Assembly: GCA_964487475.1 (NCBI GenBank)
Contig: CAZAPM010000005.1
Location: forward strand, 62,001-124,135
Source of the DNA: an uncultured Planctomycetales bacterium
GTDB lineage: Bacteria; Omnitrophota; Gorgyraeia; Gygaellales; Profunditerraquicolaceae
Length of the DNA stretch: 62,135 nt
Direction of reading: 5' to 3'
The notes under the pieces were generated by a model. The model was not told the origin of the DNA. It searched no databases and was given only the letters and a program-made list of their open reading frames with translations. Positions 8,039 to 31,800 of this stretch are shown piece by piece. How positions within the stretch are numbered: the stretch's first letter is position 1; each line of letters opens with the position of its first letter. Made by a program: the position numbers and the translations under genes.

Positions 8039-8042
8039 TTAA

Positions 8043-8138
8043 GTACGAAAGGTAAACTCATCGAAAGGTGGGGGCACAAAGCCACGGGTCCTCACGAAAT
8101 GGTTTTTTGTGTTTTGGGGATAGCCGGGTTGCCACTAT
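8043..8138 (+). ncRNA. Cyclic di-GMP-I (GEMM) riboswitch aptamer
   Basis: GAAAGGTAAACTCATC-GAAA-GGTGGGGGCACAAAGCCACGGGTCC...GGATAGCCGGGTTGCC matches the GEMM-I consensus (GGYAAAC, GNRA loop, RCAAAGCC, AGCCGGGTTGCC). The position-20 equivalent is G (c-di-GMP type rather than cGAMP type). Confidence 0.9.
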
Positions 8139-8190: not shown

Positions 8191-10347
8191 ATGAAAATTA
8201 TGAAAAAAGAAATGTTTCTGATCGCAGTTATCTGTATGGCGGCCGTATTGTTTGCAACCACGGCGATTGCTTTTGACGCCATTACTTCAGGAGAGTTTGG
8301 CAAGGTGGACGGGGATATGGGGATAAGCGGAGGAACGACCTTCATTAATAAAGGGTTTGTTAGCTCCGCGGATTTTGGAGCGACGGCCGCAAACAGTATC
8401 AAACCGGTTTGGTACAATTCGAGGCCGATGGTCATGACTTCAACCAGCCTGTATGATGCGCACAAGGGCGGATATATCCCTACTACGGATATGGTGATGT
8501 TCACTCCTATGTCCGCAAGTTGGCAGAAGTCCACCGGGCACGAGGTTGCCACGACCCAGGTAAAGATGAGTTATAACCTGGTGGGAGAAAGTGTATTTGT
8601 CGGAGGTGGTCCGCAGATCACTCTTCCCAACGGCAATGTAATCCAGACCGGGGTATATGTCGACGGAAAGACGAATATCCCAATTAATAACATCGCCGTG
8701 CAGAGGGTGGATTACATCAATCAGGAGTTGGCAAGCGCTGCAAAGGGGCATGGCCAGCCTGTTCCCGGATGGTATGCTGCGGGGGAGAAGCCTGCTCAGG
8801 CGGTATACGGCGTTACCAGGATGGGTGCCGATATGGGGACTGCGGTGGCGTATATGTCCCAACCCGGAGAATACTTCTCCGTGAACTTCCCTTCGGGTAT
8901 GTTTATTCGGCCCGGGGATCTAATTTATGGTAATGAAAATGATTTTATCTACGGAGTGGGAGCGAAAAAAAGCTATCAGAATCACATGATACTTCCGGAC
9001 AAGAGGCAGGGCGCGTATATGGTCAGGGTGACGCGAAAAGGTGACCTTGATCCGGAATTAGGAAGGAAGGTTTCGATCACGTCCCGTGCAGCCAAAGAGG
9101 TGCTCTCACGCAGGTTTGACGGAGGGATAAGCCTGTTACAGTATGAAAAGATCAAGAATAAGAGGGATGAGGTCAATTCCGAACTCTCGAAGATCAACGC
9201 TTCGAAAAGCAGCGGTTTCTTAGGGTTCCTTAAGGGAGCTCAGGCGTTGCTCCTGGGACGAACAGGAAGTTCGAACGCCAGGAAGTCCAGGGAGCTGCAG
9301 AGAGAGCTCGCAGACCTGGATTCTATCCTGAAGGACCATTATGATCCTGATATGGCGCAGGCAAAGGTAGCCCAGATCGCCTCCCAATTCGCCCAGTCGT
9401 ATTCAAACAATAACCAGGTTTCGGCAGCGGAGAAAGCCATTGCAGAGACAGTGGTTACAGCGGCGCAGGAGGGAAAGTGGCAGCAGGTGAGTGATTCGCT
9501 GGGGGCGCTTCAGGATGCCCGGTATGAAAGGATAGAGAAGGGTTTGAGCGAAATCGAAAAGGCCCTGGATAATATCGAAGCCGGAGTAGCTGCGTCGAAG
9601 CGCAGTCAATCACCCGAGACCGCACGCATGCTTGATGAGATAATGAAGCGGGCCGAAGGCAAAGAGATCAAGCCCGTTGACCCGACTACCGCCATCATTC
9701 CGGTCGTAAAAACAGAAGAACCCGTGGCTGAAGTCAAGCCGGTTGATCTGGTCTTGAGCGCTAAGCCGCCAGCCGCGGTGAATATTCAAGAGTCGGAGTT
9801 TGACACGCTGCAGAAGGATATAATGAAGGCGATCGCGGCAGAGGATGTAGATACTGCGACCGAGCTTACGAATAAACTAGAGAACCTTCTTATGAATAAA
9901 ATGAATAAAATAGAAGGGGATATGGGCAATGTGAATAAGAAGATGAAGGATATTGCTGCTCCGGTAGCTCCTAAGCCTGCAGCTGCGTCCCTTGTGGCGA
10001 ATCCATTGGTGCCGCTGGCAGATCCCAAGGGCGTCAATTCTGGCAAGACGATCGATGGGGTGAAGATAGGAAGCACGGTCATATCGAATGAGGTGGCAAA
10101 GGAGATAGGTCTGGATAAGCTAGAAGAACAGCCAAAGATTGATTTCCAGAACGAAGTCGAGGTGAGGAAGGTTATATTGAGCGAGGTTACTCAGATTGGA
10201 CAAAATTACGCAGAGTTTAAGCCTATGGCTGATAATATAATTGTTAAGATCAATAATAATGCGCCTATGTCAGAGGTGCTCCCAATGTTTGACAAGCTTG
10301 GAGAAGCGTTTACTAAGAGCGTAGAGAGTAAATTGTTCAAGAAATAA
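8191..10347 (+). CDS. Sec-exported 718-aa protein; short paralog of the giant protein's post-C39 N-terminal domain
   Basis: SD GAGGTG at 8181, ATG at 8191. Signal peptide MKIMKKEMFLIAVICMAAVLFATTAIA|FDAITSGEFG. The next ~235 aa align closely with giant residues ~312-550, including the identical DNA stretch ttctccgtgaacttcccttcgggtatgtt. The C-terminal part is helical. Confidence 0.85.
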   Translation: MKIMKKEMFLIAVICMAAVLFATTAIAFDAITSGEFGKVDGDMGISGGTTFINKGFVSSADFGATAANSIKPVWYNSRPMVMTSTSLYDAHKGGYIPTTDMVMFTPMSASWQKSTGHEVATTQVKMSYNLVGESVFVGGGPQITLPNGNVIQTGVYVDGKTNIPINNIAVQRVDYINQELASAAKGHGQPVPGWYAAGEKPAQAVYGVTRMGADMGTAVAYMSQPGEYFSVNFPSGMFIRPGDLIYGNENDFIYGVGAKKSYQNHMILPDKRQGAYMVRVTRKGDLDPELGRKVSITSRAAKEVLSRRFDGGISLLQYEKIKNKRDEVNSELSKINASKSSGFLGFLKGAQALLLGRTGSSNARKSRELQRELADLDSILKDHYDPDMAQAKVAQIASQFAQSYSNNNQVSAAEKAIAETVVTAAQEGKWQQVSDSLGALQDARYERIEKGLSEIEKALDNIEAGVAASKRSQSPETARMLDEIMKRAEGKEIKPVDPTTAIIPVVKTEEPVAEVKPVDLVLSAKPPAAVNIQESEFDTLQKDIMKAIAAEDVDTATELTNKLENLLMNKMNKIEGDMGNVNKKMKDIAAPVAPKPAAASLVANPLVPLADPKGVNSGKTIDGVKIGSTVISNEVAKEIGLDKLEEQPKIDFQNEVEVRKVILSEVTQIGQNYAEFKPMADNIIVKINNNAPMSEVLPMFDKLGEAFTKSVESKLFKK

Positions 10348-10658: not shown

Positions 10659-10686
10659 TTGACACTATATTATAATATGTTATATT
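10659..10686 (+). promoter_or_regulatory. Sigma70 promoter for the giant gene
   Basis: TTGACA (10659-10664), 16-nt spacer, TGn-TATATT extended -10, directly before riboswitch 2. Confidence 0.65.
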
Positions 10687-10692
10687 ATTAAT

Positions 10693-10790
10693 GCAACGAA
10701 AGGGCAAACCTCAAGTGATTGAGGGGCGCAAAGCCACGGAACTTAGATCCAATAATCGTGATATTTTAAGTTGGCCGGGCTGCCGAATAC
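10693..10790 (+). ncRNA. Cyclic di-GMP-I (GEMM) riboswitch aptamer upstream of the giant gene
   Basis: GAAAGGGCAAACCTCAA-GTGA-TTGAGGGGCGCAAAGCCACGGAACTTA...TAAGTTGGCCGGGCTGCCGA has the GEMM-I consensus, a GNRA tetraloop and G20. Confidence 0.9.
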
Positions 10791-10874: not shown

Positions 10875-13800
10875 ATGAAAAACCTTAGGGAGTTGATAGA
10901 AAACTGGGGGTTAGGGGGAAAACTTTCTATCGGCTCCTTTTTGCATATAGGAAAAAAGATAGATTCGGTAGTTGTGGAAGAGCCGATCCAGGGTCCCTTT
11001 GCCGAGGGGGTTGCACCGGCTGAGCCGCAATTCAAATCCAGCTTTAAAGCCTGGATCAGAGTTGTGGCTTTTATCGTTTTGGGGGTCTTTGTTCCGGAGC
11101 AGTTCGCGCAGGCTGCCGGATTCGATTATAGCGTTATCTGGAACCGACCCGGAGTTAATTCCTTTGCTCCGCAGTTAACGCCGACGCTTTCCCAGGCGAA
11201 CATTGCATTGGCAGTCAAGAACATCCTGCAGGACGTCGCGAACAAGCCGGTCAGCGAGATCAGCATCTCCGATTCTCTCACCCTCACTTTTGAGAAGCCT
11301 TTGAATATTACTTCCCGCCGTGTCGAAGAATTGTACAACTGGATGAAGGGAAAACCGTGCGGGACCAAGGCGCTGTATGATTTTCTGGCGCTGCGCGGCA
11401 AGAAAGTCTCCGAGGATGACATCGCGGTCCTGGCACTGTCCGTGGATATCCTCAACGATGTGGTCAAGCCCGTAGGAAACCCCAAGGTCATCAAGAACTC
11501 ACTTTTCGCCCTTTCAAAAGCAGCGGAATTCTTCGGGGATAAGGTGGCTGCTGTCAGGATCCCGCAGACCGATGAGGCGAACCTGCGTTCCCTGGTGCCT
11601 TTTATCGCGCACCTTGACGGGGACCACTACGTGCTGGTCACCAAAGTCGGCAGCGGAAGCGTCTATTTCACCGACTTGCACAAGGAAGTATTCCTCGCAA
11701 AGGAGAAATTCCTTGAGCGTTTCAGCGGTTTTGCGCTGGTCCCTGCGGAGAAAAAGGCGGAGTTCGAGACCATTGGTGATGCGGCCGCAAAAACCGTCTT
11801 GGGCGCCTTCGATGAGATCTCTTCCGGAGAATTCGGCCAGGTGGATGGCGATTTCGGAGTAACCGGAGGAACCACTTTCATCGGGCGCGGGTTCGTCAAC
11901 TCAGCCGACCTTGCCATTACTTCTGCGAGCAGCATACGTCCGATGTGGTATAATCCGCGGCCGATGATCATGACCTCAACCTCGCTGTATGACGCCCAAA
12001 AAGGCAGCTATATTCCCACTACAAATATGGTGATGATGACCCCTATGTCCTCGACTTGGCAGGAAAAAACCGGACATAAGGTTGCGGCGACCCAGGTAAA
12101 GATGAGCCACAATATGGTGGGGGAGAGCGTATTTGTTGGCAACGGACCGAAATCTGAGATTACGCTGGTCAACGGCGCCAGGATCCAGACGGGCACGTTT
12201 GATACAGGCACGGATCTCATTCCGATCAACAATATTGCGGTGCAAAATATCGCTTATATCAATCAAGAATTAAGGAATGCTGTGGCTGGCAAGGGGCAGC
12301 CGAATCCTGCCTGGTATGAGGAAGAGGGAAGGACTCCTCCTCCGGCAAGATATGGGTTCACCCTTCAGGGTGCAGATCCGGGCACGGCGGTTGCCTATAT
12401 GTCCGCACCCGGTGAATTCTTCTCCGTGAACTTCCCTTCGGGTATGTTCGTGAGGCCGGGAGATACGGTGTACGGGCAGAATGGCGATTATTTTGTCGGT
12501 GTCGGCGCTACTCCGGAATACCAGATGCGGCGTGTCGAGACTACTATCAAGGACTCCAGGGGCTATCAGTCAACCATGTCCAGGAACGGCGATTTCACGC
12601 TCAACTACGGAAAGATCACCGGATTTGTCCAGGATATGCCCGCGGCCAATAATTATGGCGGGGTAGCTAAGGTGTGGGGTGGCGGTTTTGAGACCGTGAA
12701 CCAGCAGAATATGGCTGTTTCGGTGGGGAATACCAATGTGGCTTTTGATGTGCAGGCACCTGAGATGACCGGCACTTTGGACAATCTTAAGCTCACCACG
12801 AGCGCGATGAAGGGAAGCGTTCATTTTGAGGGGATGGATGGAAAGGCGTTCAAGCTTAGCAGCAGCAAGATCGACGCGGGCACTTACAAGGTCGCGTACG
12901 ATACTGCCGGGAATACGGTCGATGCTTCGAAAATAGGGACCTTTAAGGCCGAGGATAATTCGATCCTTGGATCGGGCAAACTTGTGGGGCTCACCGCGCC
13001 GAATGGCTTGACCACGGATGCCATCAATAGAGGTATGCCGATCGGAATGGGATATGTTGCCCAGGGTGAGGCGATCTTCCCTGCATCCAAGATCGATCCT
13101 AACGCCCAAGGTACGGCATTTAATCCCGATTCCAATCCTACGGAGCTTTCTCTGGTCAAGGGCCTGGTGTTCCGTAATGCGGCGCAGATGCCGGAAGCGG
13201 GCATCAATCTGGCAACCGGCACTTTTCCGATCATGCTGGGGATGGATCAGAAGGGGGAGAAGCTCGCCATTGATATGCAGGGTACGACCGCCATGGCCTA
13301 CGCACCCGGCGCCAAGTGGAATAACGTCGGAGAGATCAGGAAAAACGGGAATGTGGTCGATACCAACATGGAGTATAAGTCGGGTGTCGGGTATACCGAC
13401 CTTCTGGTATATCAGATAGGAGATAGCAAGGCCGGCCATAAGGAACTGAACCTGTTGGGCAACACTCAGCCGAATGCGCTTTTATCATTCGGGGATAAGG
13501 GAAAGATCTCCAGCATTGCCGGGTCTTCAGTCCAGAGCGCAGGGATGCTTTCCCTGACCTATCTGAATAAGCCCTTTGTGCAGGAATTCAAGATGGCGGA
13601 CCTTTCCCGTCCGGAGGTGGTCAAATCTCTGGAAGCCATGGAAGCGCAGCTCCAGGGGCTCCAGCCGGGGAGTAAGGAAGCGGCCGTCCTCAAGGATAAG
13701 ATATATCTTTTCCACAAATTCCTGAATAACAACGTGCTCCTGGATTCCCTGGAAGGCGGAGAGCTTAAGCTTGAATTCGATAAGGTCGCCCTTTACCGCG

Positions 13801-16800
13801 AACAGGATGCCGCCAATCAGTGGGTGACTGCGCAGGGAACCTATCGTTTCGGCCAGTCCCTCCAGGACCAGGATAAGGTGGGCATCACTTCCTACGTGAA
13901 TGGCAAGCTTAACGATTTCCATAAGACCACGTTCCAGAGCACGGAAGCGGAGATGGTTCGGACGTTCAAGGTCCAGAAGGACCAGATCGGCGCAGATGGA
14001 ATGGTGACCATTGAAAAGGTCAAGGGCAAGCCGTATATGGGCAAGGATGCGGAAGGTAAGGATGCGCTCCTGGTGGATATCCGCAGCGAGTATTTCCATT
14101 ACGGGGTTAAAGATATGCCGATCATGCCCGAAGGGATCGTGTCCCAGAACTCTGCGAAGGACCCGAACCTGGTCGCCTCCGAAATTCGCCTTAAAAACGA
14201 GCATACCTATAATTTTGCCGGCCAGCAGAAGGGCGTGGCCCTGTTCAAGGACTCGGATACTCTGGTCAGCTACGGAGTTGGGGAGACAGGCGCCGCGTTC
14301 ATTTCTCCCGTGACCCAGGCTACCGGCCTTACCTGGCAGGGCGCCAGGATCGAGAACGAGAAGACCGTGGATATCAAGGATGCGGTGTTCTGGGGGATCA
14401 ACCGGGATAAGAACGGGTTGACCCTTTCCTTCCTCGGCGCGAAGGGCGGCGCGGACGCGTTTACCTTCCTTCCCGGAGGACAGATCAAGAACGGCGGGAT
14501 GCTTTCTTTGACTTTCCTTTCCAATCCTCATGTGGAGAAGCGCGGAGTGAAGGCATTCGACCTGCCGAGCATCACCGCTATCACCGGCCTGGATTCCCTG
14601 TTGCAGGCCGATATTGACGCGCTCAAGGTCATTAAAGAAGGATCGGTATTGTACGGGTTTGACCGGGTCGCGACCTATATGGAGCAGTCGAAGGTCGGCG
14701 ATAAGTGGCAGTGGGGTATGGCCAAAGGGACGTACAATTTCGGGGTTGACCTGCAGAACAAGGCGATGGTCGGGATTTACGCCGCGGTAAATGGCGGCCA
14801 GGCGGATTATTATCCGACGTCCTTCCAGAGCACCGAAGCGATGATCAAGCAGAGCTATAAGGTGGAGAACGGCAAGGTCAGGATCGGGGACCAGGATTTT
14901 GCCGTGGTCGGAGGCAAGATCGTCAAGGACGGAAAGGAATTCTCCGTAAGGGAGATCAAGGACCAGGCGACACAGAAATCGATGCAGGTGGTGGATATCA
15001 CCGCGGAGTATCCTTTCTACGGAGTACGCAATCTGCCGATCCTTCCCGAAGGCCTGCTGGCGCAGGATGCTGCGGCCACGGGAACGACCGGTGCGCCGGT
15101 CGCGACCGAGGTGCTCCTGAACCAGGAGCACGCATATGCATTCGATCAGCAGCGGAAGGGCGTGATCCATTTCGCGGGATCCGATACCCTGGTCGCTTAC
15201 GGGGTGAACGAAGGGAAATCCTTCTTCTCTCCCATGGCCCAGGCGGCGAATCTGATCTGGGATAACACGCAGATAGAGAATAACGGAGTTGTCGGTAAGA
15301 GCGAGGCGATACTTTGGGGGATCACCCAGGAAAAGGATCAGCTTACCTTAACGTATATCGGCGCCAGGGATACCACCCGCAGGTTCGCGTTCCGCGAAGG
15401 CGGGGTGGTGGAAAATGGCGGCATGCTTATCGAGTCCTTTTTTAAGGCGCCTATGGTCAAGACCGAGAAACTCAATAACGGCCGCACCTTATCCACTGCC
15501 GTGAACAAGCTGATGTCCTATCGGGTCAACAGCAACGGTGAATGGACGGTACCGGAAGGGGAGATCAAGTTCGCGGAGGACACGAACTTCAAGATCTTCC
15601 AGCAGAAGGATGCCGGGGCGTGGAATGCGAAGGTCGTCGAGGCGCAGGATACGAGGCTTTCTCTGGTTGAAGATAAAGGCAAGGTGATCGCCGGCACTGA
15701 CGGCAAACCNNNNNNNNNNNNNNNNNNNNNNNNNNNNNNNNNNNNNNNNNNNNNNNNNNNNNNNNNNNNNNNNNNNNNNNNNNNNNNNNNNNNNNNNNNN
15801 NNNNNNNNNCTGGAGAAGATGTTCCATTATAAGGTCCGGGGATTGGATTTTATCGAACCCGGTAAGGGAGAAAAAGGAGAGCCTTCTTCTAGTTCCTATG
15901 TGCTCGGGTATACGCTGAACCATAAAAAGACGGATTTTGTAAACGATGCGGGTATTCTCTCCGCCGGTGATGCGGTCATGCCGGTGTTGATGGGGCTTAA
16001 TGAAAAGGGCGGCCTGGATTACAGCGCTTTGACCTTGGCGAAGGGGCTTTCCTATGCATATACGGCGCAGGACGGGGTGTATATCGGCACCCTGCGTCTG
16101 GAAGCGGACGGGCAGAAGATTAACGTCAATGACGGGAAGGTGATCGTTCCTTCGGGTTCCTATAAGGGGAGCGAGAAGCGCGGGGATCTGGTACTCAAGG
16201 CGGATTATGTGGTCGATGAGCAGGGCGGGATGAAAGCTTCCTCCGAACTGGCCGTGACCGATGCCGAAGGAAAAGCGATACGGTTCATCTCCATCAGCCC
16301 GGACAGCAAGATCGCGATCGATTCCAAGGGACGTATCTGGGACCTGGAAACCGGCAAGATCATGGATAAAAGGAATACCCAGACCGATTCCCTGGAGGCG
16401 GCATTCAATAAATACCTCGCAGAGCGCAAGAAGATCACCGAGCAGTTCGGGTATACCGGGGAGATCAAGGATGGGGTTACTTTTGCGCAGGGACCGTATG
16501 TCTATCAGATCAGCGATAAGGACGGGAACTTAAGCATTGCCGCGGTCAAATTCAGCATGAAACAGGGCCAGACCTTCAAGCTCAAGAACGGCCTGACGGT
16601 CAAGGCGGAGAAGGACGTGGAGTTGGCGATCTCTGCCGGCGCGGACGTGGATCTGAATAAGCTTCTCGGAGAAGGGGTGCTTTCCCTGCAGGGTACGCTC
16701 CGGGTGAAAGATAATGTCGTGATCAACGGGAACATCACCCTGACCCCGCTTTCCGAATATGACCTCACCTTTGCCAACGGCAAGCAGAATATCGCGGCCG

Positions 16801-19800
16801 GGACCCGTTTCAAGGGGAATAACGGCCTCATGTACGAAGCGGCGGCAGACGGTACCTTTAAGGTGGTGGGAGGAGCGCTTTCCAGCAAGAATGCGCTCTC
16901 CCTGGAAGGCGGCGCTTCCCTTGAGCCGGTGGGCGAATATCAGGTCACCTATAACGAGAACGGCGAAGCGGTCATTGCGGCCGGCACCCGTTTCCGGGAT
17001 AAGAAGGGGAATACGTTCGTCACGGATAAGGACGGGAAATTCCAGATGCATAGCGGGGTGACCACCTCCACGAATTCCATCACCCTTGATAACGGGGTCG
17101 AGCTTGTTCCGGTTCGTAATGCCAAGACCGCGGATGGCGGATATACCCTGTTTTGGAAGGACGGCAAGCCTACTATCGAGCGGGGCACCAAGTTCAAGGG
17201 GTCGAACGGCCTGGATTATATGGTTGGGGACACCGGAGAGTTCAAGGTGGTCGGCGGCACCCTGAAGACCAAGGATGCGGTCAAGGTCTCTGACGGAAAG
17301 GTGACCCTGACCCCGGTAAGCGAATACCTGGTGACCTTCAGCGAGGACGGGGATTCCCATATCGCGGCCGGCACCCGCTTCAACGGTTCTGACGGGCTGG
17401 TGTATCAGGTCGGCGCAAAGGAAATGTTCGAGGTAGTGGGCGGATCGAAGAAGGTACAGGAACCTATTAAGGTAAGCGACGGAAAGGTAACGCTCACTCC
17501 CGAGCAGGCGTACGTGATCACCTTCGACGAGAAGGGCCAGTCCCATATCGCCGCCGGGACCCAGTTCAAGGGGTCGGACGGTTTGGTGTACCGCGTGGGC
17601 GCCAACGAGATGTTCGAGGTGGTGGGCGGATCGAAAACGGTGCGCGATGTCATCACCGTGACCGGCGGGAAGGTGACCCTTTCCCCGGAAAAAGAGTATT
17701 CGGTTTCCTTCGACGAAAAGGGCCAGTCCCATATCGCGGTAGGCACCCGTTTTAAGGGATCGGACGGTTTGATCTACCGGGTGGGCGCCAACGAGATGTT
17801 CGAGGTGGTGGGCGGATCGACCCTTTCCAACAAACCGCTTGAGCCCAACGGCGAGAAACTGACCCCGGTGGCACCTTATCGGGTAAGCTTCAACGAGAAG
17901 GGTGAGGCGACGATCGAGGCGGGCGCGCAGTTCCAGACCAAGCAGGGGACTATCCTGGAAGTGGGTGTGGATGGTTCCCTTAAGCCGGTGACCAAGGGGA
18001 TCAAATTCGAGCTGGGTATCCCCCTGAAGGATGGCGTGATCAAACCGCAGGATATCAAGATCGAGCCGGAAAAGGAGAATAAGCCTTCCGCTGCCATCCC
18101 TGTTGAGAGCGAGTTCGAGACTGCCGCCTGGAGCGCGTGGGATAACGTGGCGGCTGAAGCGCAGGCAACGGTCATGGCGAATGGGTTCACCTATGAGGTC
18201 ATGACCGATCCGTTGCTTGTCCTGGCTGCGGTAAGCGAGGATATCGCGGCGCAGGAAGCGAAAGATAAGACGCAGAAGAGGACGGACCTGAATGCGAAGA
18301 TATCGATCCTTGAGAACAGGCTTTCGGAGTTGAACCAGAAGCATTATAAGGCGCTTGAGGCTGAAGGGGATCTTCCTCATCAGGGAACATGGGCTTGGAT
18401 AAAAGGAGCGATGCCGTGGAATCAATTTGATGATTCGGCAAAGATCGAAAGGGATAAAGTGATCGCCGATCTGCGCAGCCTCTATGCCGACCGCTATGCG
18501 CTCGATCCCGGCGCCATGCTGCAGGAAAAGAAGCAGCTGGAAGGCATCAGGGAATTCGCCCTGCCCGCATCGATCTCCGCGACCTGGATCAAACAGCAGG
18601 CGATCGAGGACCTTCTGAAGAAGTCGCCTATCGGCCGGGCCATGGTCGCGAGCGAAAAAGCCACCAAGCTTGCCGCGAACATGGAGTATGCCAAGGAGAT
18701 GCAGACCGAAGGCTGGTTCCGCGAGCAGTACAGCCTGACCAGATCTGAGGCGGTTAAAGTATTGGATCAGACTAACGAGAACATTAACCGTGAGAAAGCC
18801 GAACTGGCCAAGGAATTGTCCGAGATCGGAACCGTGTCTGACCTCCAGCTCAATACCCAGTTGCAGGCGACACAGATGGCGCTGCAGAATTTTGTGTCGG
18901 GCCAGGCTGATCTTCCCTCCTACGGCATTTGGTCCAAGCCGGAGCATCTTAAATCCGATGTGCGCCGTGTAGGCAGCAGTATGCTGGATTTTGGCGGAAG
19001 CGTAGTTTCTTATGCTGCGAACGATATGGTGTGGGATACCAGTTTAATGGTGCTGCATGGTGCGGTAGGAGGAGGCGAGGATTTGATCGGTTGGGCTTTT
19101 GGTAGCGAGAGCTGGTCTAAAGAGGCGAAGGATCATTACCGGATTTCTTTGCTTTATGGGATGAATGGCTTGACCGGTGATCTGACCGATGTTTTCCATG
19201 GAGAAGGCACCGTGCAGGATACCATGGAATGGGCGTTCCGCGGATCCGAAAAGTCGGATAATCTCAGGCTTGTCGATACTGAAGGGTCGGATTGGCAGGA
19301 ATGGACTTTTGAGGTGAAAGAATCCGGAAGGACTTTTGCGGTCAAGGGTGATGCGTTCACCATGGGTATCGGCCTGAATCTGATGAAAGAGGCAGGGATC
19401 CAGGATTGGAAGGAAGGCAGCAGCGCTTCGGGCGCGTTCAAGTATACGGTTGGACAGCTGGGCATGCTGAGCAAGACCGGAGTTGAGCTTGCGGCAACCG
19501 GAAAAGCTGCCGGATTAAATATAGGTAAAGGCACTTTCGCGGTTGCCGGTGGCACGCAGGTTATCGGGGACTCGGTCAAATACGCAACGACCGGGGAGTT
19601 CCTTGGCGGCAGAGACACTACGCCGATGGCGGTTTCTTTTGCGTTGCCGGCTGCCGGCGTCAAGATCGCCAGTGAGCTGGGAACGGCTTTGAAGGCGGTC
19701 AACGTCGCGGCGACAGTAGCTCCTTCTGCGGGCAAGCTGAACGCGGTATTTGCTCCTATAGCCGTAAAAGCGGTACAGGGAGCGCAGTGGGCTGCGAATG

Positions 19801-22800
19801 CTCAGCTTTCGAGAGCAGCTTTTGCCTGGGAAAATTTTTCAGTATCCGTGAACCAGATAAGTTCGATCGGTACCACCGGCAAGCCGATGTCTTTAAGCCA
19901 ATCAGTGGGCACGGTAGCCACTTCATACGCGTTCCAGCTGGCCGGCTTAAGCGTGGTCAATGTTGCAGGGAAAGCGATTAATCTTGCCGGCACGGCGATC
20001 TCTCCGAGCTCGGTGAGTACCTTGCAGGCAATTGGAAGGGCGGTCGGGCCTACCAGCAAGTTTGCCTGGGCCAGCTATCCTTCGGCGGGTGCGGTCGCAG
20101 GATTGGCGTATAACCGCGTGAGCACCGGGGAGTGGATCAATGAGAGCACTTTGAAAAACGTAGGTATAGGCGCGGCGGTCGGGTTGGGAGTGAAAGGGGT
20201 GTTTTCCGTAGGTAATACAGTTGCCGCGGTCAACCAGGCTTCTTCCGGAACGGTTTCTTCTTCCTCCCTGGCGGCGAAAGTCATTCGTCCCGTAGTTTCC
20301 TTCGTCAAAGAGGATATCGGCTTGGCGCATCCCGTGCAGTTCCTTTCCGGATCTACGGCCGCGGCATTCATGGAAAAAGACGCGCCGTTGGTATCTTCGG
20401 TAGGCGGGTGGCAGGAGAATATGGTCGCTTCGTTGATGCTTGCTCCCGGCCGCGGAGTCTTGAGCGCAGTGGGAGACCTCGGGAATACTCTCGGGATCTC
20501 GAATTCGCTTTCTGCCCGGATGAGCGAGATAAACCTGGTCGAGATGGAGCTTAGCAACAACGACCTCCAGCATCACTGGTGGGGAGTTCCCGTGGCGTTC
20601 ACTTCTTCCGCGCTGCGCGTAGGAAGCCAGATGTACTCCGGATCTTACGCCTTGCAACTCGGGGCCAGGCCGAGCTTGGTCGTGACCGGCATCACCGATA
20701 CGCTCGGTTTCGCCAAAGAGGTGATGGATAATGTCAAGGGCACTCCTAGCGCAAGGCCTCTGCGTGCGGTGGATGTCGCCTCGACCCTGGGCGGCTTGAC
20801 TGGTATGTTCGTTGGAGCAAGAGGTGTTCCCGGGACCAGGATCAGCGGGTTATCTTCGCGCATTAATAACTCTTTTCTGAAGGGGGTCGTGGCGAATACT
20901 CCCGTCTATGCGGCGGTGGGTACCGGGGTCGGCGCCCTGGCAAGCAAATGGCAGAGCGATTCCTTAGGGGAATATTTCTATCAGAGCGGCAGGAACGTTG
21001 ACCAGAATGCTATCAGCTCCATGGGAGCTGCGGTGGCGTTCAACGGACTTGGCCGTGCGGTCAAAGCGATCAGCACGTCCGGCGCGGGCGGGGCAAAGAT
21101 CGTAGGGCTTTCCGTAGGAAGCGCGCTGGTGACCGGTACGGCGGATTACGCGAACGCCTTGATCAACAAACAGGAGTATACCTTTACCCGCGGCGCGGTC
21201 GCCGCCGGCACCGGATTTGCGCTGGCTTCGGGAGCATTGATGCTCGGTGGAAGGATCCGCTCCTTAGGCGCGGTTTCCCAGTATATCAAGTATCCGGTCA
21301 GCATGGGCCTGATCTCCGGCGCCAGCACGATCGCCGCAGCAGGAGTTTCTGGACAGAATTATAGCAAGCTTTCCCTGGCAGCGACCTCCCTGGGGACGAC
21401 CGTGGTCACTGGTCTGGCGCTGAAAAATCCCGGAACGAACCCCGTGGGAAGCAAGCTCGAGGCGGTCAGGTTCTTCAAGAACGTCGGGGAATCTTTCGGT
21501 ATCAATACCGCCAGAAGCGGGCTGCGTATCGGCAGTACCCGGTTAGGGGTCAATCCTTTCACCTTGAAAGCCGCTCCTTTCTATCTGGGCGTTGTTCCCG
21601 GATCTGCCATGGCTTTAGGTTTTGTGCCGGAGTCAGTGGTGTCCGCGCCTAAGCAGAGGATATTCTCCGCCATTGCCATCGCCGCAGGTACTACCATGAT
21701 GTTCTGGAATATGCGCCAGGTTAACACCGGCGGCAATACCGGCATGCGGGCTTTGTTCAGCGCTAAGGATGGCGTATGGAATTATCGTCCGGCATGGGTA
21801 GGCGCGAATGTTGCCGGTGCCTACATCCTTAATTCCGATAAGATCGGATTGAATAAGAAGCTGGGAGATAATCTCGGGCTGGTTAATATTGGCCTGGGAA
21901 TAAGCATGGCTGCGGCGGCTGCGGGGTACGGCAATGTGCTGAAGAATATGGCCAAGCCTCAGTGGATGGGAGAGAATTTCTGGAGCGCGAGGGCCTTGGC
22001 TGCCGATGCATCAAAGTGGGCAAAAGTGAATAGGTTTGCAGCCCAGGCTATAACGTCCAGGGCCGCGTTCTGGGGAGGAACGAGTGCCTGGGTTTTCGGT
22101 GCGCCGGCAGCGTACGAGCTTGTCACGGGTAATGATTACGAAAAGAGCGATTTTAAGAGCGTGCATCAGTGGGGATCCGCGGGCCTGCTTGCCGCGGGTA
22201 TCTTTGTCCCCGGTTTAAAGCCCGGATTGCAGAATCTGCGTCAGAAGTTCTATCTGCTCCAGAACGGGGAGAACATGATCTTTGCCCACCAGATGGCAAA
22301 GACCGCGCTTCCGATGATCCCTGCCTTGACCACGGGTATGGCGTTCTTCCCGGATCTCCAGAATTATTTGTTCAGGCAGGAGGGGAGTTGGGCCAGCGCA
22401 GCAAAATCGGCTTTCAATTACGAAGAGTTTGTTACCGGTTACAACAAGATGTTCCCCAACGAGCCTTACAATTCTGAGCTTGGCTATTTTGAAGCCCAGA
22501 AAAAAATGATGATCGCGCAGATGGCAGGTGAGTTGCAGAAGATGAACCCCGCCTCTCAGCAGTACAAGAATCTTTCCAAGCAGCTCGATTATTATAGGAA
22601 TGCAGACGTCAATAAGAGCTCCAAGTTCCTGGGCATCCCTGTTGGCAACGAGTTCCGCTGGCTCTTGCGTTCCCAGCAGGCGTATGAAGGGTTGAAGGTG
22701 GCGTTTTACTTCGGGCCTCTTATGGAATTTGCCAGACCTTTCCTTACCGAAGGTTTGACCAGGATCCCCGTATTAGGCGATCTGCAGGCGGTCATGGGCG

Positions 22801-25800
22801 AAGGGGCGGGAAGCAGGGGAGTATCCATGGGCGATACCCTCGTTCCGTTAGGGGATCTGCAGTCCGCATTGTATGCCCGCGGCGGCGCTGCCAGAGTGGT
22901 GAGCCATGCCGTGAAAGCCGCGGATCTGTTCCAGGGCTTGATGATGGAGGAGCAGGTAAGGGAGCATATCGCGACCATAGCACTCGGCAGTACGTTCAAA
23001 AAAGCGGGGGTCACGATCTTTAGCCCTGATTCCAGCGATCCTAATTACTCTGCGCTTAGCTTAGGGGCAGAAACCTTCCAGGAAAGCTTTGAAGGTACGG
23101 GTAGATTCAGCACTTCCCGCTTGAACAGGGCTACAATAAACGGCCTTACTTCCGGAGACTTTAGGCTTTGGCGTATTGATCTTCCGATCGGATATCGTCC
23201 TGCTTCTGGCAGCGCTGCTCCGGCAGATGCAGCTTCAATTAATTCCCGCTTAAGCGCTCCGGCTTCCCAGGGAAGCGCCTTGCGCGATATTGCAAATCTT
23301 CCGCAAGGAACAAGGGTTTTTGTTGAGGTATTGAACAATAACAATGTCCATTTTGCACAGGGAAGATATGAATTTGAGGTTGAGGAAGCAAAGGTATGGT
23401 CTTTACCAATAAATACTTATGTTAATTACTTGGACTTCAATGCTAATGTCCAATCTGGGAGCATTTCTCCTGTAGATGTTGTCAATACCGCATTGACCGG
23501 TGGCGTGGATTCAGATGATCCTCAGATCCAGGGAGCACGGTTATTTGTTGCCGAGCACCTTGATCCGGTTACTGCTGCCAAGGTTGAACACCCCAGCGCA
23601 TTAGGTTATCTTACCGTGAATGCCGGTAGCGCTTCAGCGGTTATCCCTGCAAAACTGATCGCGCCTCATTTGTATGACAGAATGGTCACTGATCCGGTAT
23701 TCAAGCAGGATGTGCTCAGGGCCTTCCCTGGTATTACGGCTGCTCCTGCTGCTACCAATGTGAATTTAGGTGCATTACCCTTTATGATCACCGCTTCTTC
23801 TGCAGGGTATGATCCTTCTGCTCAATTCGAAGGTCAGTATGTGCAGTGGGTGCATTCGAGCGCACCGCATTTGCTCAAAGCGCAGAAGTTCTATGTTCAG
23901 GATGGCGGTAAGGCCGTAGAGGTGATCCTGCAGGACGGGGCGTATTTAGGTGTGAACGGAGTGACGTATGCGCCTGAGCGTGTTACCGAAGTACAGCAGA
24001 TCAGCGGCATGTACGAATGGGTAAGTGCTAAGCGTAAGGATGCAAAAGCAGGTTTGGGAGCCGGAGCGATCGGTGCGGATGGCAGAGCGATCGTGTTTAT
24101 CGACGCTTCTCAGCAGTTTGATGCAAATAATCCTTTTGATTCTGTGCTGGTGCGCCACGAGAGAAATGAGGTTTCCCGTCAGGCCAAGATGGGTCAGCGT
24201 TTGCCTGGTTCCGCGTCGGCAGCATCCAGATTCGAAGGGATCGCTTCTTTGTCAGGATATACGGCGAGGCAGTCGGGTGCCCGCAGCCGTCAGATCTGGC
24301 AGCTTACCGATGCCAATGCTCCGGTTCTTCCGGAAGCATCCTTTGCCGCTGCCCAAGTGAAGACTGTCGCACCGGTTTTGCCTGCGCAGGGCAATATGCT
24401 TTCCGCTGCGGCGCCGGTATTCGTAACGGCCTTTTCTGCCGGCCACGATGCTGTTTCTGAAGAGGCGACTGCCGAAGATAAGCAGATCGCGGCACTTGCG
24501 CTGCAGTTGCTGGAGGCCAAGTTGGATATGCCTTTTGAGCCTTCCAGGGTTAGGGATGCTCAGACACTGGCAGTTCAGCTCCAGGAGGCAAAGGCAAAAC
24601 AGAAATATGACAGTGCGTTGGCTGGTTTCGGCGTCGACCGCAGCACCTGGTGGAGCCGCGTGAAGTTCGACGTGTTCGGCGTAGGCAAGAAGGCGGTGCA
24701 GGAGCAGATCGGGCAGCAGGAGAAGGCGAAGGCTGAAGCCCGCCTGCAGGAGCTCAACGAGCAGCGCAAGATGCTGCAGCTTAATTTCAGCGATGACGAA
24801 GTGCGGGGCATGATCGCGCAGGAGAAGAAGCTTGCGGACCCGGCTACGGTCACCGCGGAAGATATCGCCGCCAAGAGGGAGGAATTCGCGCAGGCGCAGT
24901 CCTTCATCTTCGGCCTGGAGATCGCCCGCGAAGAGGGAGTGCCTTTCGATAAGGTCAACCCGCGCAGGCTGGAAGCCAAGAAGAACGAGAAGCTGAGCGG
25001 TATCAATCAGGAAGCCGCGTTCTGGGCTAAGGTGCTGCTTAAAGAAGTTCCTCTCAAACAGTATTTCGAAATGAATGAAGCGGTGCAGAGCCGGCAGGTA
25101 GCGGCGTTCATGCCCAGGGCTTTGACCGCAGGTCTGGAGCCTTCGACGCTTGGCCTGGCTTCCTGGAATGAGCTCAAGGGTAATGTCCAGGAGGATGCGC
25201 AGCCGGGCGTCTTTACGGTCAAGGGTAGAAAGGTCGAGCTGGTCAATGTGCCGCAGTTCATCTCTTCCGCGCTGAAAGTTCCCGAGCCGATCAACTTCGA
25301 TCTGGCTTTGGTCAAGACGAACGAGCAGGGTGAGAAGCTCATTCCGTTGAATGTGGGCACCCTGGTGCAGAAGCAGGACGGCACCTGGGTGGTCCGTACG
25401 AGCATGCCTAAGGAAACTCCCGCTCCCGCGGCCGATGCGCTGAAGACCGCGGAGGCAGAACAGAAGGCGCCGGAGCTGGTCACCACGGAAACTCCTGTGG
25501 TGCTGGGCCAGGCAGTAGAGCTGGCAAGGACCGAGGCGGAAGGCAAAGGCACCAGATTCTTCGTAGAGGAGCTTACTCCCGGCACGCTGACCGTGACCCC
25601 GATGCAGAGCTTCGCGCAGAGACAGGCGCTGGCGCAGATGCATACGGAGTTCCTCAGGAGCATGCCCGGATACACCGCGGGCAACAACAATTGGTTCGCG
25701 TATACGGGCGATGCCGCGACCTTCCAGCCGTTGAGGGCAAGATTGATGGGTATGGCCCAGGAAGCGGATGCGGCGGCTGAATCTCAGGCTGCCGGTGCAA

Positions 25801-28800
25801 TCGATCTGGCGGCGCTGGAAAGCCAGCTCGCCAATGAGATACGCGCGGCAGTGAGGGAGAGCAGGCCTGCAGCCAACCGTTTCGATATGATCCTTCCCCA
25901 GTTGCCCGCAGGCAGCCCGCTTCGCCTGGCAGCTGAGGCGTTGAGGGCAGAAGTTGAAGGCAAGGCGGAGTTCGATCTGGATCTGACCAAGCTGCCTCAT
26001 TTCGCCGCGCTGCAGGATGCGGAACGTCAGTTCCTGGCGATCCTGGCACAGCCTTCGCAGGGTGCGGGTGTTGCCGAGGTTCCTGCTGCGGGTGCGGAAA
26101 CTCCGGAAAAAGCGCAGTTAAGACAGCTTATCGCTACCATTGCCAATAGCAAAGAGACCGAAGAGAATCGCCAGAAGGCGTTGGAGGCGACCAAGGACCT
26201 GTATTATGAAATGTTCGACCGTACCACCAGGAACAAGAGGTTCATGGATCTGATGGCGCAGTTGAACAAAGAGAACCCGAACGTGGATTACCGTTTCATC
26301 ATCCAGGGAGACGGGCAGAGATTCGCGGATTATCGCGATAAGATCATCGGTATCGAGCAGTATTACCGGGCCCGGTTCGGAGCTCAGAACACCTCTGCCG
26401 CGTTCGGCAGGGCTATGTCGGTCATCAATGAGCTCTGGAGCAACGTCTATAAATACGGCGACTGGGGTTTGATGATCGTAGAGAAGGCCGAAGACAGGAT
26501 GATCGTCAGGGTCAAGGATAAAGGACCCGGGTTCATCCTGGGTATGCCGAAGAGCTTGACCGCAGGGGTGACTACCGGCGGTACTCCGGGTATGGGGTAT
26601 CCTACCCAGACCATCGATAAGGCGGACAGGATCGTCGTCAGCTCCGGGCCTGCGCGGCATGTTTCCGGCCAGCTCGGGCTTGACCGGCATGCGGCCTTCA
26701 CCCAGCTGGTGAACAACGATCATCCGGTGACGGGTGTGGAAACCGTGGCCGAGGTCTGGCTTGCTCCTCAGAAGCCCGTTCCTCCTGCCAATGACAGGCT
26801 GGATATGATGGGGATATCCCAGTCTGCCCGCCAGTTGCTTTATTTAGGTAAATTAGCCGTCTACGGGGCCCGCAGAGCATGGGCAAGGATGAACAATCAG
26901 GCCGCGGATACCGGAACTTCGCTTCCGCAGCCTATGTCCGCCACTCCTGCGGTCCCTGCGACGAATGTCCCGGCGCCTGCGGCTACCGGATCTACCGGTA
27001 ACGGCACCGGCAATGGTTCGAATTCGGGTGGTACCCGGATCGTGGGCTCCCTGGTCAGCGGGTCCATGACCGCAAACCACCTTAACTGGGCTAATAACCC
27101 TGGTTTGCCTGCACAATTCAATGCCACGGATGCACACCTGGGCGGACAGTTAGCCCCCACCAGCACTCAGACCGGCGGTCCTTCTCAGGCCGGTCCGGGC
27201 GGCCGTAGTATCGCGGCTGGCCTTGCCCAAGGCCAGGTCGTGGTTCCATACAGTGGGGCAAAGGCCCAGAATGGGTCTGCATATCTTGGTGTAGTGTTTG
27301 GAGTTACAACAGTAGTTGCAGGTGTTGTAGTAGGAGTCACCAGTGGTATCGTAGCAGCAGGCGCGGTCGTAGCGCTTGGTGTAATTGCGATAGGTGCCCT
27401 TTCTGCGTCCTCGAGAACCACGAACGCAGCCGAAAGCAGGGCTGATAATAGAGGAAGCGAAGCTCCGATCGCAGGTGAAACAAGCCCGGTTGCCAGCAAT
27501 GGCAATGCAGGCAATGGTTCCAAGAGTATCGCCGCATATACCGCGGATGCCCCTGTTACGGGGGTTGGCGCCTTGATGCGCGCCAATGGTTCTGAAGTAC
27601 TGATGCCGAGCAATCCGGCGTTGGGAGAACCCAAAAACCACGGTCCTCCGGCAGGTTCCCTTTCTACGCTTTCCAGTCTGGACAATTCAACGGTTGGTGC
27701 TCTCGCAAGAGGCGTTTCCACCACTGAATCTGCTGTTTCCCCCGAAGTAGCCGATCACAGGTTTACCGCGAATTCCGTCAATAATCCTATAAATGTGAAC
27801 GAGCCGCACACTGCTCTTCCTTCCGTGGCAGGAATTAGAGCTTTTGTTGCGGCTTATGTTGTAAATGGGCGCTCCGCAGAAGTCCCCACCTCCGGGGAAC
27901 TGACCACTTCTGCCGGGGCGCCCTTTACAACGAAAGGAGCATTAAAATGTGCACAATCAAATTCGAAGAACTGGAATTCGATCATATGGTCGAATTTATC
28001 AAGGATTCAACAGTATTTCTCTCAGGCCGTGAATCAGGCAGCGGCAAGGTTCGCCTCTTCCTTATTCATGAGGATACCGGCAACGTTTATACGCGCAATG
28101 GCCGGGTTGATTCCTGGGAAGAGCTCGAAGGCAACTTCCGCGATGCCGTTGTCTCCCGCCTCTACGCTTTCCGCGACCGGATCCCGGTCTACCGCGTTAA
28201 CGGTACTCACGAAGTACACGCCTAAAGCGTTGATGTGTGCGGCCGCACTACTGCCTTTCGCGATGGCGGCTGCGGCTCAGGCGCAGGGAGTGGACGCGCC
28301 GGTCTTGACCGAAAGAGAGTTCGTGGACGGGTTCTGGCTGAAGGTCCTGGCGGTTGCCGGTGCCTTCAGCGTGATGGGCGTAGGCGTGTTCCTGGCGGCG
28401 CTTAAATTCACCCGCTGGTCTGCGCAGAGGGCTTTGAAGGTCGCCGGCATGACCGTCGGTATCGTGGCGGTGCTTGGCGTCGGCGCCGGATATACCTATG
28501 ATAAGAGCGATGCCGCGATCGCCACCCTTAAACTTGATCCGCGCAGCGTGGGTATCGCTCCCGCTCAGGATAGCGTCAAGGTCGCGCCGCTTTCCTATTA
28601 TCTGGTCAATGATGACGGTTCGATCGAGCCTGCCGGCTGGCTGGTAATTGACGGCAAGGAATATCATGATTTCAATCCGCTCGGCATCATCAAGGGCAAC
28701 GGTCTTTTCGTGCAGCTTTCCAACGGCGCCTGCCGCGTGCTTTCCCTCGAGAGGATGGGAGACAGTGTTAATCTTGAAGAAACCTTGCGCAAGGCGGGGA

Positions 28801-31800
28801 TTGCCAAGGCGGTGATCTTGAATGCGGCGCAGATGGGCCCGATGGCCATCGTCAACGGCAAGATCGTCCTGAAAAAAGGCTGGGATGCCGGTGCGCTTAA
28901 TTTCCTCGGCATTACCCGCGAGGGATATGTGGTATTGATCAAGACGGAAGGCGTGTTGCTCGGCCAGGTCGGCCAGAACGGTATGGATATCGCCAAGAAG
29001 GCTCTGGCCCTGGGCGTTGTCGAAGGCGCGTTCATTGATGGCGGCGCGACCGATGAAGTGTACAAATCCGTGAACGGACTTTTCATAAGCAAGGCGCGGT
29101 TGAATGGTTTCGTGGCCCAGCAGCTTAAGCAGCAGGAACAGCAGAAGAAGCAGGCTCCTGCTGCGCCTAAGGCTCCCGCGCCCGCTCCGAAGGCTTCCGG
29201 CAAGCGCAATGCCCGTCCGCGCAAGGCAGGGGAGAAGAAGGTGGGCGCGCTGGTTGGCGCCAAGGCGACAGAGACCGCGGCGAAGACCATGTCGCCTGCG
29301 GTGCATGACCGCAGAGGATTCCTGAAGACCCTGGCCATGCTGGCTGCGGCGGCATTCGCCTCCGTGTCGGTAAAAGCGGCGCAGAAGGCTGCGGCGGCAG
29401 TGGCTCCGGATATGGATTCCGCCATGCAGGCGGTGTATTGCTGTCTTTCCACCACGACGCAGACCTATAAGATCGCGGAAGGCGACACCCTGGGTAAGAT
29501 CGCCCGTAAATTCAACACCACCATCGAGTTGATCAAAGTGCTTAACGGCCTTAAGAACGACACGATCATAGCAGGCCGTACCCTGGAAATTCCGCAGTAC
29601 AGCGCGTTCCTGGCGGTGAATCCTCAGACCGGGGCGCTGCGCATCGGTATCTATGACAAGGATTCCCGCCTGATCGGTGATTTCGAGTTCATGGTCGGCA
29701 CTGGCGAGAAAGAATCCCCGACCCCGGCCGGCGATTTTACCGTGATCAATCGTCTTTCGAGACCCGAATGGTGGATGAGCAAGAACAATCCCGATACGGT
29801 CATCCGCTACGGGCAGGCGCATTATCCTTACGGGCCGCTCGCGCTGCTGCTTAAGACCAACAGGAATTTCGATTTCCACACCGTTCCTTCCGATTGGCGC
29901 AAGGAAGGCCCGGTTTCCCATGGCTGCATCCGTATGTCCGATGAGCTGGCGAAGATGCTGTGGGCGGTGGTCAGGGAAGGCACCCGCGGCATCGTGACCA
30001 GCGCCGCGTATCAGTTCCCGCAGACGATGGCCCCTAAGGCTGTGAGCAGGAACGAAGCCGGATTCGCCGATCCCCGCGTCATGGCGGGTGTGGTGGGAGT
30101 GTTCGGTATCGCGGCGTTCGCGTTCGGGTATTTCGCGCTCGGTATGGCCGCTCTGGCGATCAGCGCCGGCAGCATAGCGGTGATGAAAGCCGCCTCCAAG
30201 AGCGAGGCCCGTTTTGACGCCGGCCGCCGCGAGGCGCTGCGTACCATGGGTTTTGTCGCCGCAGGGCTGGCGCTCGGCGGAGCGGATGCGCTGGCGAATG
30301 TGCGCACCACTGCCGCGACGATGCCTCTGACCGATCTTACCCGCGTGGTCGATGGGGTGCTGCGCCACACCGATCCGCACCTCTTCGCAGGCAATACAGT
30401 GGCTCCGGGCCAGGAGAAGAAGTATTCGCACCTGATGTATATGCTGATGGCGACCGCGATCCAGGAATCCGATCTGCGCACGAGTGGGCTGGAGAACGGG
30501 ATGTGGCAGGTGCTTCTGCCCGATGCGCTGGTCTTTGTGCGCACCACCATCGCGCTTCTCGATCAGGCGCAGGCGGCCCGCTCCGAAGTGCTGCTCCATA
30601 CGATCAAGAAGGGTGATTCCCTTGAGTCGGTCACCAGAGAGTATGCGCGCGCGAAGGGTCTGGTCTGGGGCGCGGAGATGGTCAAGGCTGCGGCGGCCAA
30701 TAACAACTTTAAGAAGAACGGTAACGGGCATTATATCCTTACCCCCGGTGCGAAGATGAAAGTGGTGCTGCCGGTGGTGGAGCGTGCGACCTGGCAGAAC
30801 GCTTTGAAGGGGATCACCGGCAAGGCTCGCGCGGACCTCATGAACAACTCCGCGGAAGTAAGCAGGCTTTTGAAGACCAGCCCGGCGTTCGGCTGCTTCC
30901 TGGCGCGCGTGCTGTACCGTTCCCGCGCGGAAAACGAGATCAACGCGCTTCCTTCCCGCGACCAGATGGCAGCGGCTCTGGCGAGATCTTTAGGCCGCGC
31001 CCCCAGCGCCGATGAGCTGAACAAGGATTTTGCGCGCCGCGCTTCGAACATCTGGTACGAGAATTACAACGCGAGCAAGGACAGGGTCGCGGAGAAGAAG
31101 TCGAGATTCGTGTCCCGTATGGCGGCGGTGGCGACCGGCCTGGCGAAGTATGTTGCGCTGATCGTGCTCTTCCTGGCCGCGACCGCGAAGGCGGCGGCGG
31201 GCCCGTTGGTTGGTGCGGCGGCGCCTGCGGCGAAGACCGCGGGCCTGACCTTGTCTGCGGCGATGCCGGTCATCATCGGGCTGGTGGCGTTTGTCGGCTT
31301 GCTCGGGTTGATCTACTTGATCAGCAAATCGCACGAAGCGCAGCAGAATAAGGCTCCGGAGCTGATCGATGANNNNNNNNNNNNNNNNNNNNNNNNNNNN
31401 NNNNNNNNNNNNNNNNNNNNNNNNNNNNNNNNNNNNNNNNNNNNNNNNNNNNNNNNNNNNNNNNNNNNNNNNAAGCATTGGCTGGAGGAGAATCCGAAGG
31501 CGACCTTTGAGCAGAGACTGGATAAGGTCTTCGACCTGATGAAGGGTTCGATCTACGCGCGCATCGGCCGCGCCCTGGAGATCGATAAGGTTGATGCGCA
31601 GTTCATCTCCGGCCTGGTGGCTTTTGTCGAGAAGACCATGGTCGTGACAGAAGGCGGGGAAGGCTCTTCCGATCCTCTCGCCCTGCGCGCCAGGATCATC
31701 GCCAAGATCGGCCAGATGGTAAAAGACATCCGTACTCCGGCCAAGATGGCAGAGCTTAGCGATGCGCTGAAGGATTTCGAGCTTAAGTCCATTGCCAACG

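Follow-up and report, generated by a model that had tools for sequence, protein, structure and literature searches.

The giant gene and its neighbours

The window, meaning the whole stretch of DNA analysed here (62,135 nucleotides), carries a giant gene that is still open where the contig ends and, upstream of it, a far shorter paralog. These are the features needed at the outset:

1293-2978: Pfam match to Tad, upstream of the giant gene
8042..8137, + strand: c-di-GMP-I-GGC riboswitch aptamer, 5' of the paralog (Rfam RF03167, 59.7 bits against a gathering score of 59, E 1e-11)
8191..10347, + strand: paralog, 718 aa; likely start ATG 8191, predicted Sec signal 8191-8271, mature start F at 8272
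10659-10686: sigma-70-like promoter match before the giant gene (11/12 positions)
10693..10787, + strand: c-di-GMP-I riboswitch aptamer, 5' of the giant gene (Rfam RF01051, 66.4 bits, E 8e-11)
10875..62135, + strand: giant gene; its four N-free segments contain about 17,000 codons, the last being still open where the contig stops; true length and continuity across the gaps uncertain
15710-15809, 31373-31472 and 33746-33845: scaffold gaps of 100 N each, inside the giant gene

Riboswitches of the c-di-GMP-I type precede both the giant and its paralog, and the two may therefore be co-regulated. The length of 7,700 aa for the giant is an assembly figure, because that ORF reads across three 100-N gaps. 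The N-free segments stay open and sum to about 16,984 codons, the last of them in another frame: past the third gap (33848-62135) there are 9,429 giant codons, up to the contig end, in which no Pfam match was found at E 1e-4. Mid-giant Pfam domains are LysM and YkuD at about 29460-30000 and an M23 peptidase at 33460-33740, which point to peptidoglycan binding and remodelling. The archaeovorin subtype is recognized by glycosyl transferase, methyltransferase, NUDIX, and SecA-like domains; the Pfam scan of this gene, which runs off the contig, found LysM, YkuD, and M23 alone past the head. No ABC domain of Pfam lies in the giant segments scanned, so the transporter architecture of PCAT/AMS proteins is not present there. 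The named homologs of the giant are mostly from Omnitrophota, and the gene has the marks of the N-terminal-C39 type known from that group: a very long ORF, a C39 domain near the signal, and a Tad match upstream.

The gene at 4571-7936 encodes a signal-peptide protein of 1,121 aa (ALA/YRSSAGGG; here and below a slash within residues marks a cut) whose family turns up immediately upstream of many giants; the beginning of this protein has a weak similarity (E 0.002) to one of the Gly-rich cargo families described below.

A peptidase head

The first 311 residues of the giant, which I call the head, and the domain behind them are laid out as follows:

11040..11114, + strand: signal-like segment, residues 56-80, ending AQA/A; predicted signal peptidase I site or uncleaved anchor
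11196..11342, + strand: alpha/beta sub-domain before the C39 core, residues about 108-156; conserved, with invariant Trp156 and AF2 pLDDT of 75-84
11343..11750, + strand: C39 papain-like peptidase core, residues 157-292 (Pfam PF03412; Cys162/His251/Asp267)
11772..11807, + strand: double-glycine-type leader fused behind the core, from I300(-12) to G310-A311(-1); the predicted cut falls between nt 11807 and 11808
11808..12617, + strand: first cargo domain, residues 312-581; beta-rich, 61% identical to the paralog, AF2 mean pLDDT 86.9

A preliminary description of this DNA had named the residues on which all else turns, and C162 (nt 11358), H251 (11625), D267 (11673), G310, A311, and F312 (11808) are each where it put them. 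It had also treated residues 1-311 as a single pro-domain. There is indeed such a head, in two parts: the signal-like segment at 56-80, which has an h-region and the top rule-based cut site and whose pattern recurs in 120/127 related heads, and a pro-domain proper at 81-311.

Pfam Peptidase_C39 matches giant residues 209-294 with 32.7 bits (cut-off 22), and in a genome-wide search the PF03412 match in the head, scoring 35.6 bits, is the sole one in a genome 94.6% complete, which makes a PCAT acting in trans unlikely. A scan of genome contigs with the head gave one weak unrelated match. The AF2 model of the head (mean pLDDT 82.9) has LahT, PCAT1, and ComA as its top matches in both Foldseek and VIA-align, the closest solved structure being LahT (6MPZ; VIA-align Z 13.7, rmsd 2.5, 120 residues), and a profile of 112 heads retrieves only LahT and ComA from the PDB. 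These PCAT structures match only positions 75-215 of the model, and the sub-domain at about 108-156 has no counterpart among them.

Within the 112 aligned heads, the catalytic Cys and His are each present without exception (112/112). The third member of the triad is Asp in 76, Glu in 19, and another residue in 17, the giant having Asp267. Six residues before the Cys, at the position of the oxyanion Gln, every head has Trp (Trp156 in the giant); the role of that Gln in PCATs has been called into question (PMC6363468). Mutual information between leader and core over the 112 rows comes mostly from gap-rich loops and is uninformative.

A leader behind the peptidase

The peptidase domains of PCATs such as LahT and ComA recognize Leu(-12), Glu(-8), Leu(-7), and Val(-4) in a leader that is helical from -11 to -4 and extended from P3 to P1 (PMC6363468). 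The giant carries a stretch of this kind just after its C39 core (...ETIGDAAAKTVLGA/FDEISSGEFG), with hydrophobic residues at -4 and -12 (V308, I300) and a G-(G, A or S) end in G310-A311. It is a weaker copy, with Gly(-11) and Ala(-8) at positions occupied in most relatives by Ser/Thr and Glu; Ala-Ala stands at -8 and -7 in place of the canonical Glu(-8)-Leu(-7), and the giant's is one of eight heads that fall outside the strict pattern given below. The leader is internal, fused behind the peptidase, rather than at the N-terminus of a separate PCAT-exported precursor. In the AF2 model its residues 301-310 have a mean pLDDT of 96 and form a short helix (302-306) followed by an extended stretch; for the next ten residues the mean is 59.

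How special is this site? A leader weight matrix was built from 126 relatives, the window's own copy left out. It gives A311 19.4 bits, and the runner-up in the 7,700-residue ORF 3.0 bits; nothing exceeds 12 bits in the remainder of the giant, and A311 is the best Gly-ending leader match across all six frames of the genome. A type IV prepilin site also has the form G/F. That reading was rejected: Glu+5 and the hydrophobic run are missing, and Phe at +1 is rare.

Conservation stops at the predicted cut

The order to which the window belongs has the head in 122/234 genomes. From these, 129 head regions were taken, seven short or contig-end matches being left out, and a core-only profile (without the leader) run on the 129 regions plus the window gave 132 matches, from which four truncated ones and one duplicate were dropped. 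The final set is 127 heads from 117 genomes, 67 genera, and 6 families, relatives that are not independent samples.

The claim that G(G/A) is kept after the C39 domain in homologs, borne out at first in 31/32 proteins, extends to this larger set. Gly-[Ala/Gly/Ser/Lys] follows the core in 127/127 heads, a loose pattern. The strict one (hydrophobic at -12, Glu/Gln at -8, small at -7, Ile/Val at -4, then G-X) follows it in 119/127, or in 112 when the site is set at the first loose match, and is found in 7/2,350 control windows farther down the same proteins. Gly(-2) is universal (127/127); position -1 is Ala, Gly, Ser, or Lys in 101, 12, 11, and 3 heads, Ile/Val(-4) occurs in 122, Glu(-8) in 98, and Leu/Ile/Val(-12) in 116. 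At -7, where PCAT leaders have Leu, 114/127 heads have Ala or Ser. The tether from the last strand to -12 is 7 to 32 residues long (mode 10) and never less than 7 in the 125 heads where it can be measured.

Past the site, conservation drops sharply. Information content is 3-4 bits at -4, -2, and -1 and at most 1 bit beyond; identity to the giant is 48% before the site and 6% after it; and the 150 residues that follow sort into 50 cargo clusters. The preliminary description took FDxIxSGEFG to be the shared mature start. What is general is the register: the sequence is specific to the lineage, Phe(+1) occurring in 1/127 heads and at least 17 different residues being seen at that position. The head appears to work as an exchangeable cassette ahead of variable cargo.

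When the relatives were scanned with the leader matrix, 2/111,263 downstream windows reached the members' 5th percentile, most relatives being covered for their first 1-2 thousand residues. Two giants (L035 in G188 and L036 in G111) have a second leader-like stretch ending ALGA, about 400-500 residues past the first site, where it stands before an incomplete copy of the cargo domain found in the window; it is possibly a second cut.

Many cargos of clusters A5, A7, and A8 (e.g. L081, L092, L154) have a short basic start and long Gly/Ala-rich hydrophobic helices. They may resemble the glycine-zipper peptides that come after double-glycine leaders in bacteriocins.

Sister proteins with a signal peptide in place of the head

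The paralog provides a natural control. It joins a predicted Sec signal straight onto the giant's cargo domain (MKIMKKEMFLIAVICMAAVLFATTAIA/FDAITSGEFG). The BLASTP alignment of the two proteins begins at the paralog's Ala and at A311 of the giant and runs for 272 columns at 61% identity (E 3e-102), and no significant similarity in protein or DNA was found upstream of the shared Ala. This confirms that homology starts at A-F, as had been claimed from the two sequences, and is the ground for rejecting the view that the paralog's signal peptide is a drifted copy of the leader. The proposed signal cut at AIA/F likewise holds up: it ranks first of 5 candidates under a simple (-3,-1) rule of our own, the rule by which all signal cuts here were predicted. 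The cargo domain itself is modelled with low confidence over its first 19 residues, which may reflect a shallow alignment, and confidently from about +20; the junction thus had room to lie elsewhere than at +1. Fold searches with it gave a best Z of 2.6 and no Foldseek match at E 0.001, results that do not imply a new fold.

Is the coincidence of signal cut and leader end peculiar to the window? For five cargo families, versions lacking C39 were sought across the 204 genomes of the family; the search with the window's cargo family was extended to 401 class genomes and to a 50% representative library. Six genome-derived signal-peptide proteins with an intact start were found, and 6/6 are in exact register with the GA site. 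They come from five genomes and three cargo families, so the coincidence recurs:

G000, the window: paralog AIA/FDAITSGE, giant LGA/FDEISSGE
G221: ALA/GKYSTSASW, upstream of its own giant KGA/GKYSTGASW
G121, two genes: SCA/KSRKSTG, own giant LGA/KSRKDTG
G044 and G071: VFA/RSYKGEYPDLS and LWA/KSYRNDYADIS, giants of other genomes LGA/RSYKGEYADLS

In G071 the rule-based cut ties with a site two residues downstream. The two Gly-rich cargo families among these match each other weakly (E 0.002-0.05), perhaps through distant kinship; the family of the window's cargo stands apart. What the sister proteins have in common is register, not sequence. With three independent junctions, about 20 positions at each, and two candidate signal sites, I roughly reckon that agreement by chance would arise about once in a thousand. 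In cargo families A6 and A7, no signal-peptide version was found among the 204 genomes of the family. The G099 paralog was left out as a case since a contig end cuts its start, and same-locus matches in G094 (a repeat or frameshifted piece), G089 (a repeat protein), and G231 (a second C39 giant) were not counted.

Five more distant library proteins also align, one off by 0-1 residues (P0039) and four by more. P0036 exceeds its best partner by five residues and falls one short of two other C39 versions, the signal cuts of P0046 and P0052 differ from the partner's GA register, and P0041 is without the first 35 or so cargo residues. The exact N-terminus is therefore not always needed. P0045 gave no alignment, and scans of metagenome contigs for the context of P0039 and P0036 found no locus.

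Three giants in the library (P0037, P0042, and P0051) have the same signal type and cargo without C39. The head cassette is therefore modular, not universal. Before the cargo they have a linker of about 35 residues ending VYA, LYA, or AYS, which may point to a third way of reaching a similar N-terminus.

Small signal-peptide proteins (P0044, P0046, P0047, P0050, P0052) carry one or the other half of the cargo domain alone. In a tree, the window paralog is the sister of the window giant's cargo (support 100/99) and the G221 paralog lies outside that group; since the grouping differs, the two are likely separate events. The G221 paralog (L028:7130-8824) is close to its own giant over the first 60 or so residues and over the whole domain closer to the giant of G109, so it is possibly a mosaic.

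A head that probably removes itself

I propose that the head, residues 1-311, removes itself by one cis cut after A311, following export. That A311/F312 is the cut site I consider very probable, from the leader and the register; that the head makes the cut itself, once and in cis, is likely on the same sequence evidence. I infer a series of steps: Sec export first, leader docking, the cut, its cis mode, and self-silencing. The predicted export signal at 56-80 would take the chain out via Sec, and the peptidase would act, like FapD, in the periplasm. There the head would fold, and the leader helix, on a tether of at least 7 residues, would dock in the groove. Cys162 would make a single cis cut at the A311-F312 bond, giving the cargo a free N-terminus. 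The leader would then stay in the cleft and silence the enzyme, as in HC-Pro, the leader protease of potyviruses.

The exact register of the sister proteins supports a free N-terminus at F312, and hence a cut there. It had been offered as support for cis autocleavage as well; it gives the site, not the mode, which must be argued on other grounds. PCAT C39 domains do cut leaders in trans (PMC6363468), and the cut at A311/F312 could be made by the C39 of a second copy of the giant, or after a trigger. I regard this as improbable: the tether is short and conserved, with its floor of 7 residues, the leader is modelled confidently on the monomer, there is one site per enzyme, and the self-cleavage of StbD is obligately intramolecular (10.64898/2026.05.07.723447). 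The topology could be different while the site stays the same. Residues 56-80 are far more conserved than ordinary signal peptides, follow a 55-residue N-region, and contain Glu-Gln, and PCAT C39 domains are cytosolic; the segment might be an uncleaved membrane anchor, or not exported, and the C39 cut, made on a tethered and possibly cytoplasmic chain, might serve anchor release. The conserved AQA or SWA end is typical of signal peptidase I sites and the cargo's sister proteins carry predicted export signal peptides, which makes this rather unlikely.

Perhaps there is no cut at all. The leader might be an uncleaved plug, a pseudo-substrate or a structural element, with GA marking the edge at which modules are swapped and the real targets being other proteins, e.g. 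prey surface proteins. Sharp drops in conservation do arise at module edges, Trp in place of Gln, the variable Asp, and Ala/Ser at -7 are not canonical, and West-Roberts et al. leave other substrates open (10.1101/2023.11.21.568195). A plug would have no need of a cleavable G-A, G-G, or G-S dipeptide, nor would its end have to coincide exactly with the signal cuts seen in three cargo families when the cargo fold begins 19 residues later, and Cys and His are invariant beside a complete substrate; I think it a poor bet. It is very improbable that GA311 is merely the first of many internal sites at which C39 processes the giant as a polyprotein. That idea has been suggested (10.1101/2023.11.21.568195), and two relatives do have the second leader-like stretch 400-500 residues downstream. 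Against it, no second site surpasses 3 bits in the 7,700-residue ORF, the giant's remaining segments have none beyond 12 bits, and the relatives, mostly over their first 1-2 thousand residues, show the same dearth (2/111,263 windows).

Self-removal in cis, the preferred reading, has its own difficulties. The oxyanion Gln is replaced by Trp in 112/112 heads, the triad Asp is absent in 36/112, Ala or Ser stands at -7, the giant's copy has no Glu(-8), and four distant homologs are off register. The C39 of StbD needs reducing conditions, by analogy a possible problem for a C39 head in the periplasm.

What is the head good for? That short proteins can do with a plain signal peptide in its place suggests a role in exporting, folding, or timing chains of great length. 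A broader picture, which I hold tentatively, is of a portable cassette of signal, C39, and own leader, a PCAT peptidase fused to its substrate and the bacterial counterpart of viral leader proteases, placed ahead of dozens of interchangeable cargos. It would escort the long chain in export and be removed by one cut, perhaps triggered by redox state or contact, exposing a defined N-terminus that short sisters reach by way of a signal peptide.

Whether and where the giants of Omnitrophota are cut has been stated as an open question (10.1101/2023.11.21.568195). A single predicted site, present in more than 100 genomes, offers a small testable construct (about 500 residues) and a specific peptide to be sought in existing proteomes. 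A single site also speaks for a C39 head that takes off nothing but itself, and against a giant cut into many pieces. If true, such a compact, one-shot autoprotease, with at least 17 residues seen at +1, could serve as a self-cleaving tag.

Relation to known systems

An ESM Atlas search returned generic C39 clusters only, and a literature search covering few subscription papers found no paper that names a cut site of the A311 type; bioRxiv supplements might annotate one. Close to the present case are the giants described by West-Roberts et al. in 2023 (10.1101/2023.11.21.568195), where a C39 domain near the N-terminus of Omnitrophota giants is suggested as possibly cleaving them, at points given there as unknown. 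They share with the window the giant gene, the C39 domain near a predicted signal peptide, and the Tad-like genes upstream. In contrast to that account, there is here one predicted site, backed by signal-peptide sisters, which argues for removal of the head rather than for many pieces. A 2026 preprint has a 24-protein PF03412 architecture cluster (10.64898/2026.06.07.730766); the string 'cleav' is absent from the accessible part of its text.

Other C39 proteins resemble the head in part. C39-like domains have been listed as toxin domains (PMC3482391), and the C39 toxin StbD-CT cuts its own chain in cis after Gly-Gly, under reducing conditions (10.64898/2026.05.07.723447). StbD-CT and Cpe1 share the C39 fold with the head (match Z 11.7), but in these cytosolic proteins the site is N-terminal to the peptidase, which is itself the released toxin, whereas the giant has its predicted site C-terminal to the peptidase, which as part of the head would be discarded. 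FapD of Pseudomonas is a Sec-exported C39 protein, active in the periplasm and Cys-dependent (PMC5557850); unlike the head, it stands alone and acts in trans, on an unidentified target. In working mode the head would be like viral papain-like leader proteases such as potyviral HC-Pro, which by one cut at its own C-terminal Gly-Gly frees the downstream polyprotein, its tail probably staying in the cleft (PMC11085613). The likeness is one of function; HC-Pro belongs to another peptidase family, with the motif YxVG/G.

It is from the PCAT/AMS exporters that the parts seem to be drawn. The C39 domains of LahT (6MPZ), ComA, and PCAT1 have the fold of the head (Z 13.7, 13.4, and 13.1) and its Cys-His pair, and PCAT leaders resemble those of the family in their hydrophobic -12 and -4, Glu at -8, ending in G-G, G-A, or G-S, and helix giving way to an extended P3-P1. 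Unlike those systems, the head has no ABC transporter, and enzyme and leader form one chain with the leader C-terminal; it also differs in the signal-like segment in front, the extra N-terminal sub-domain, Trp for the oxyanion Gln, and Ala or Ser at -7. The feature is well supported, and its arrangement is new though its parts are known: a PCAT peptidase and its own substrate joined in a head that would come off, with the sister proteins as a natural control pointing to the exact predicted cut.
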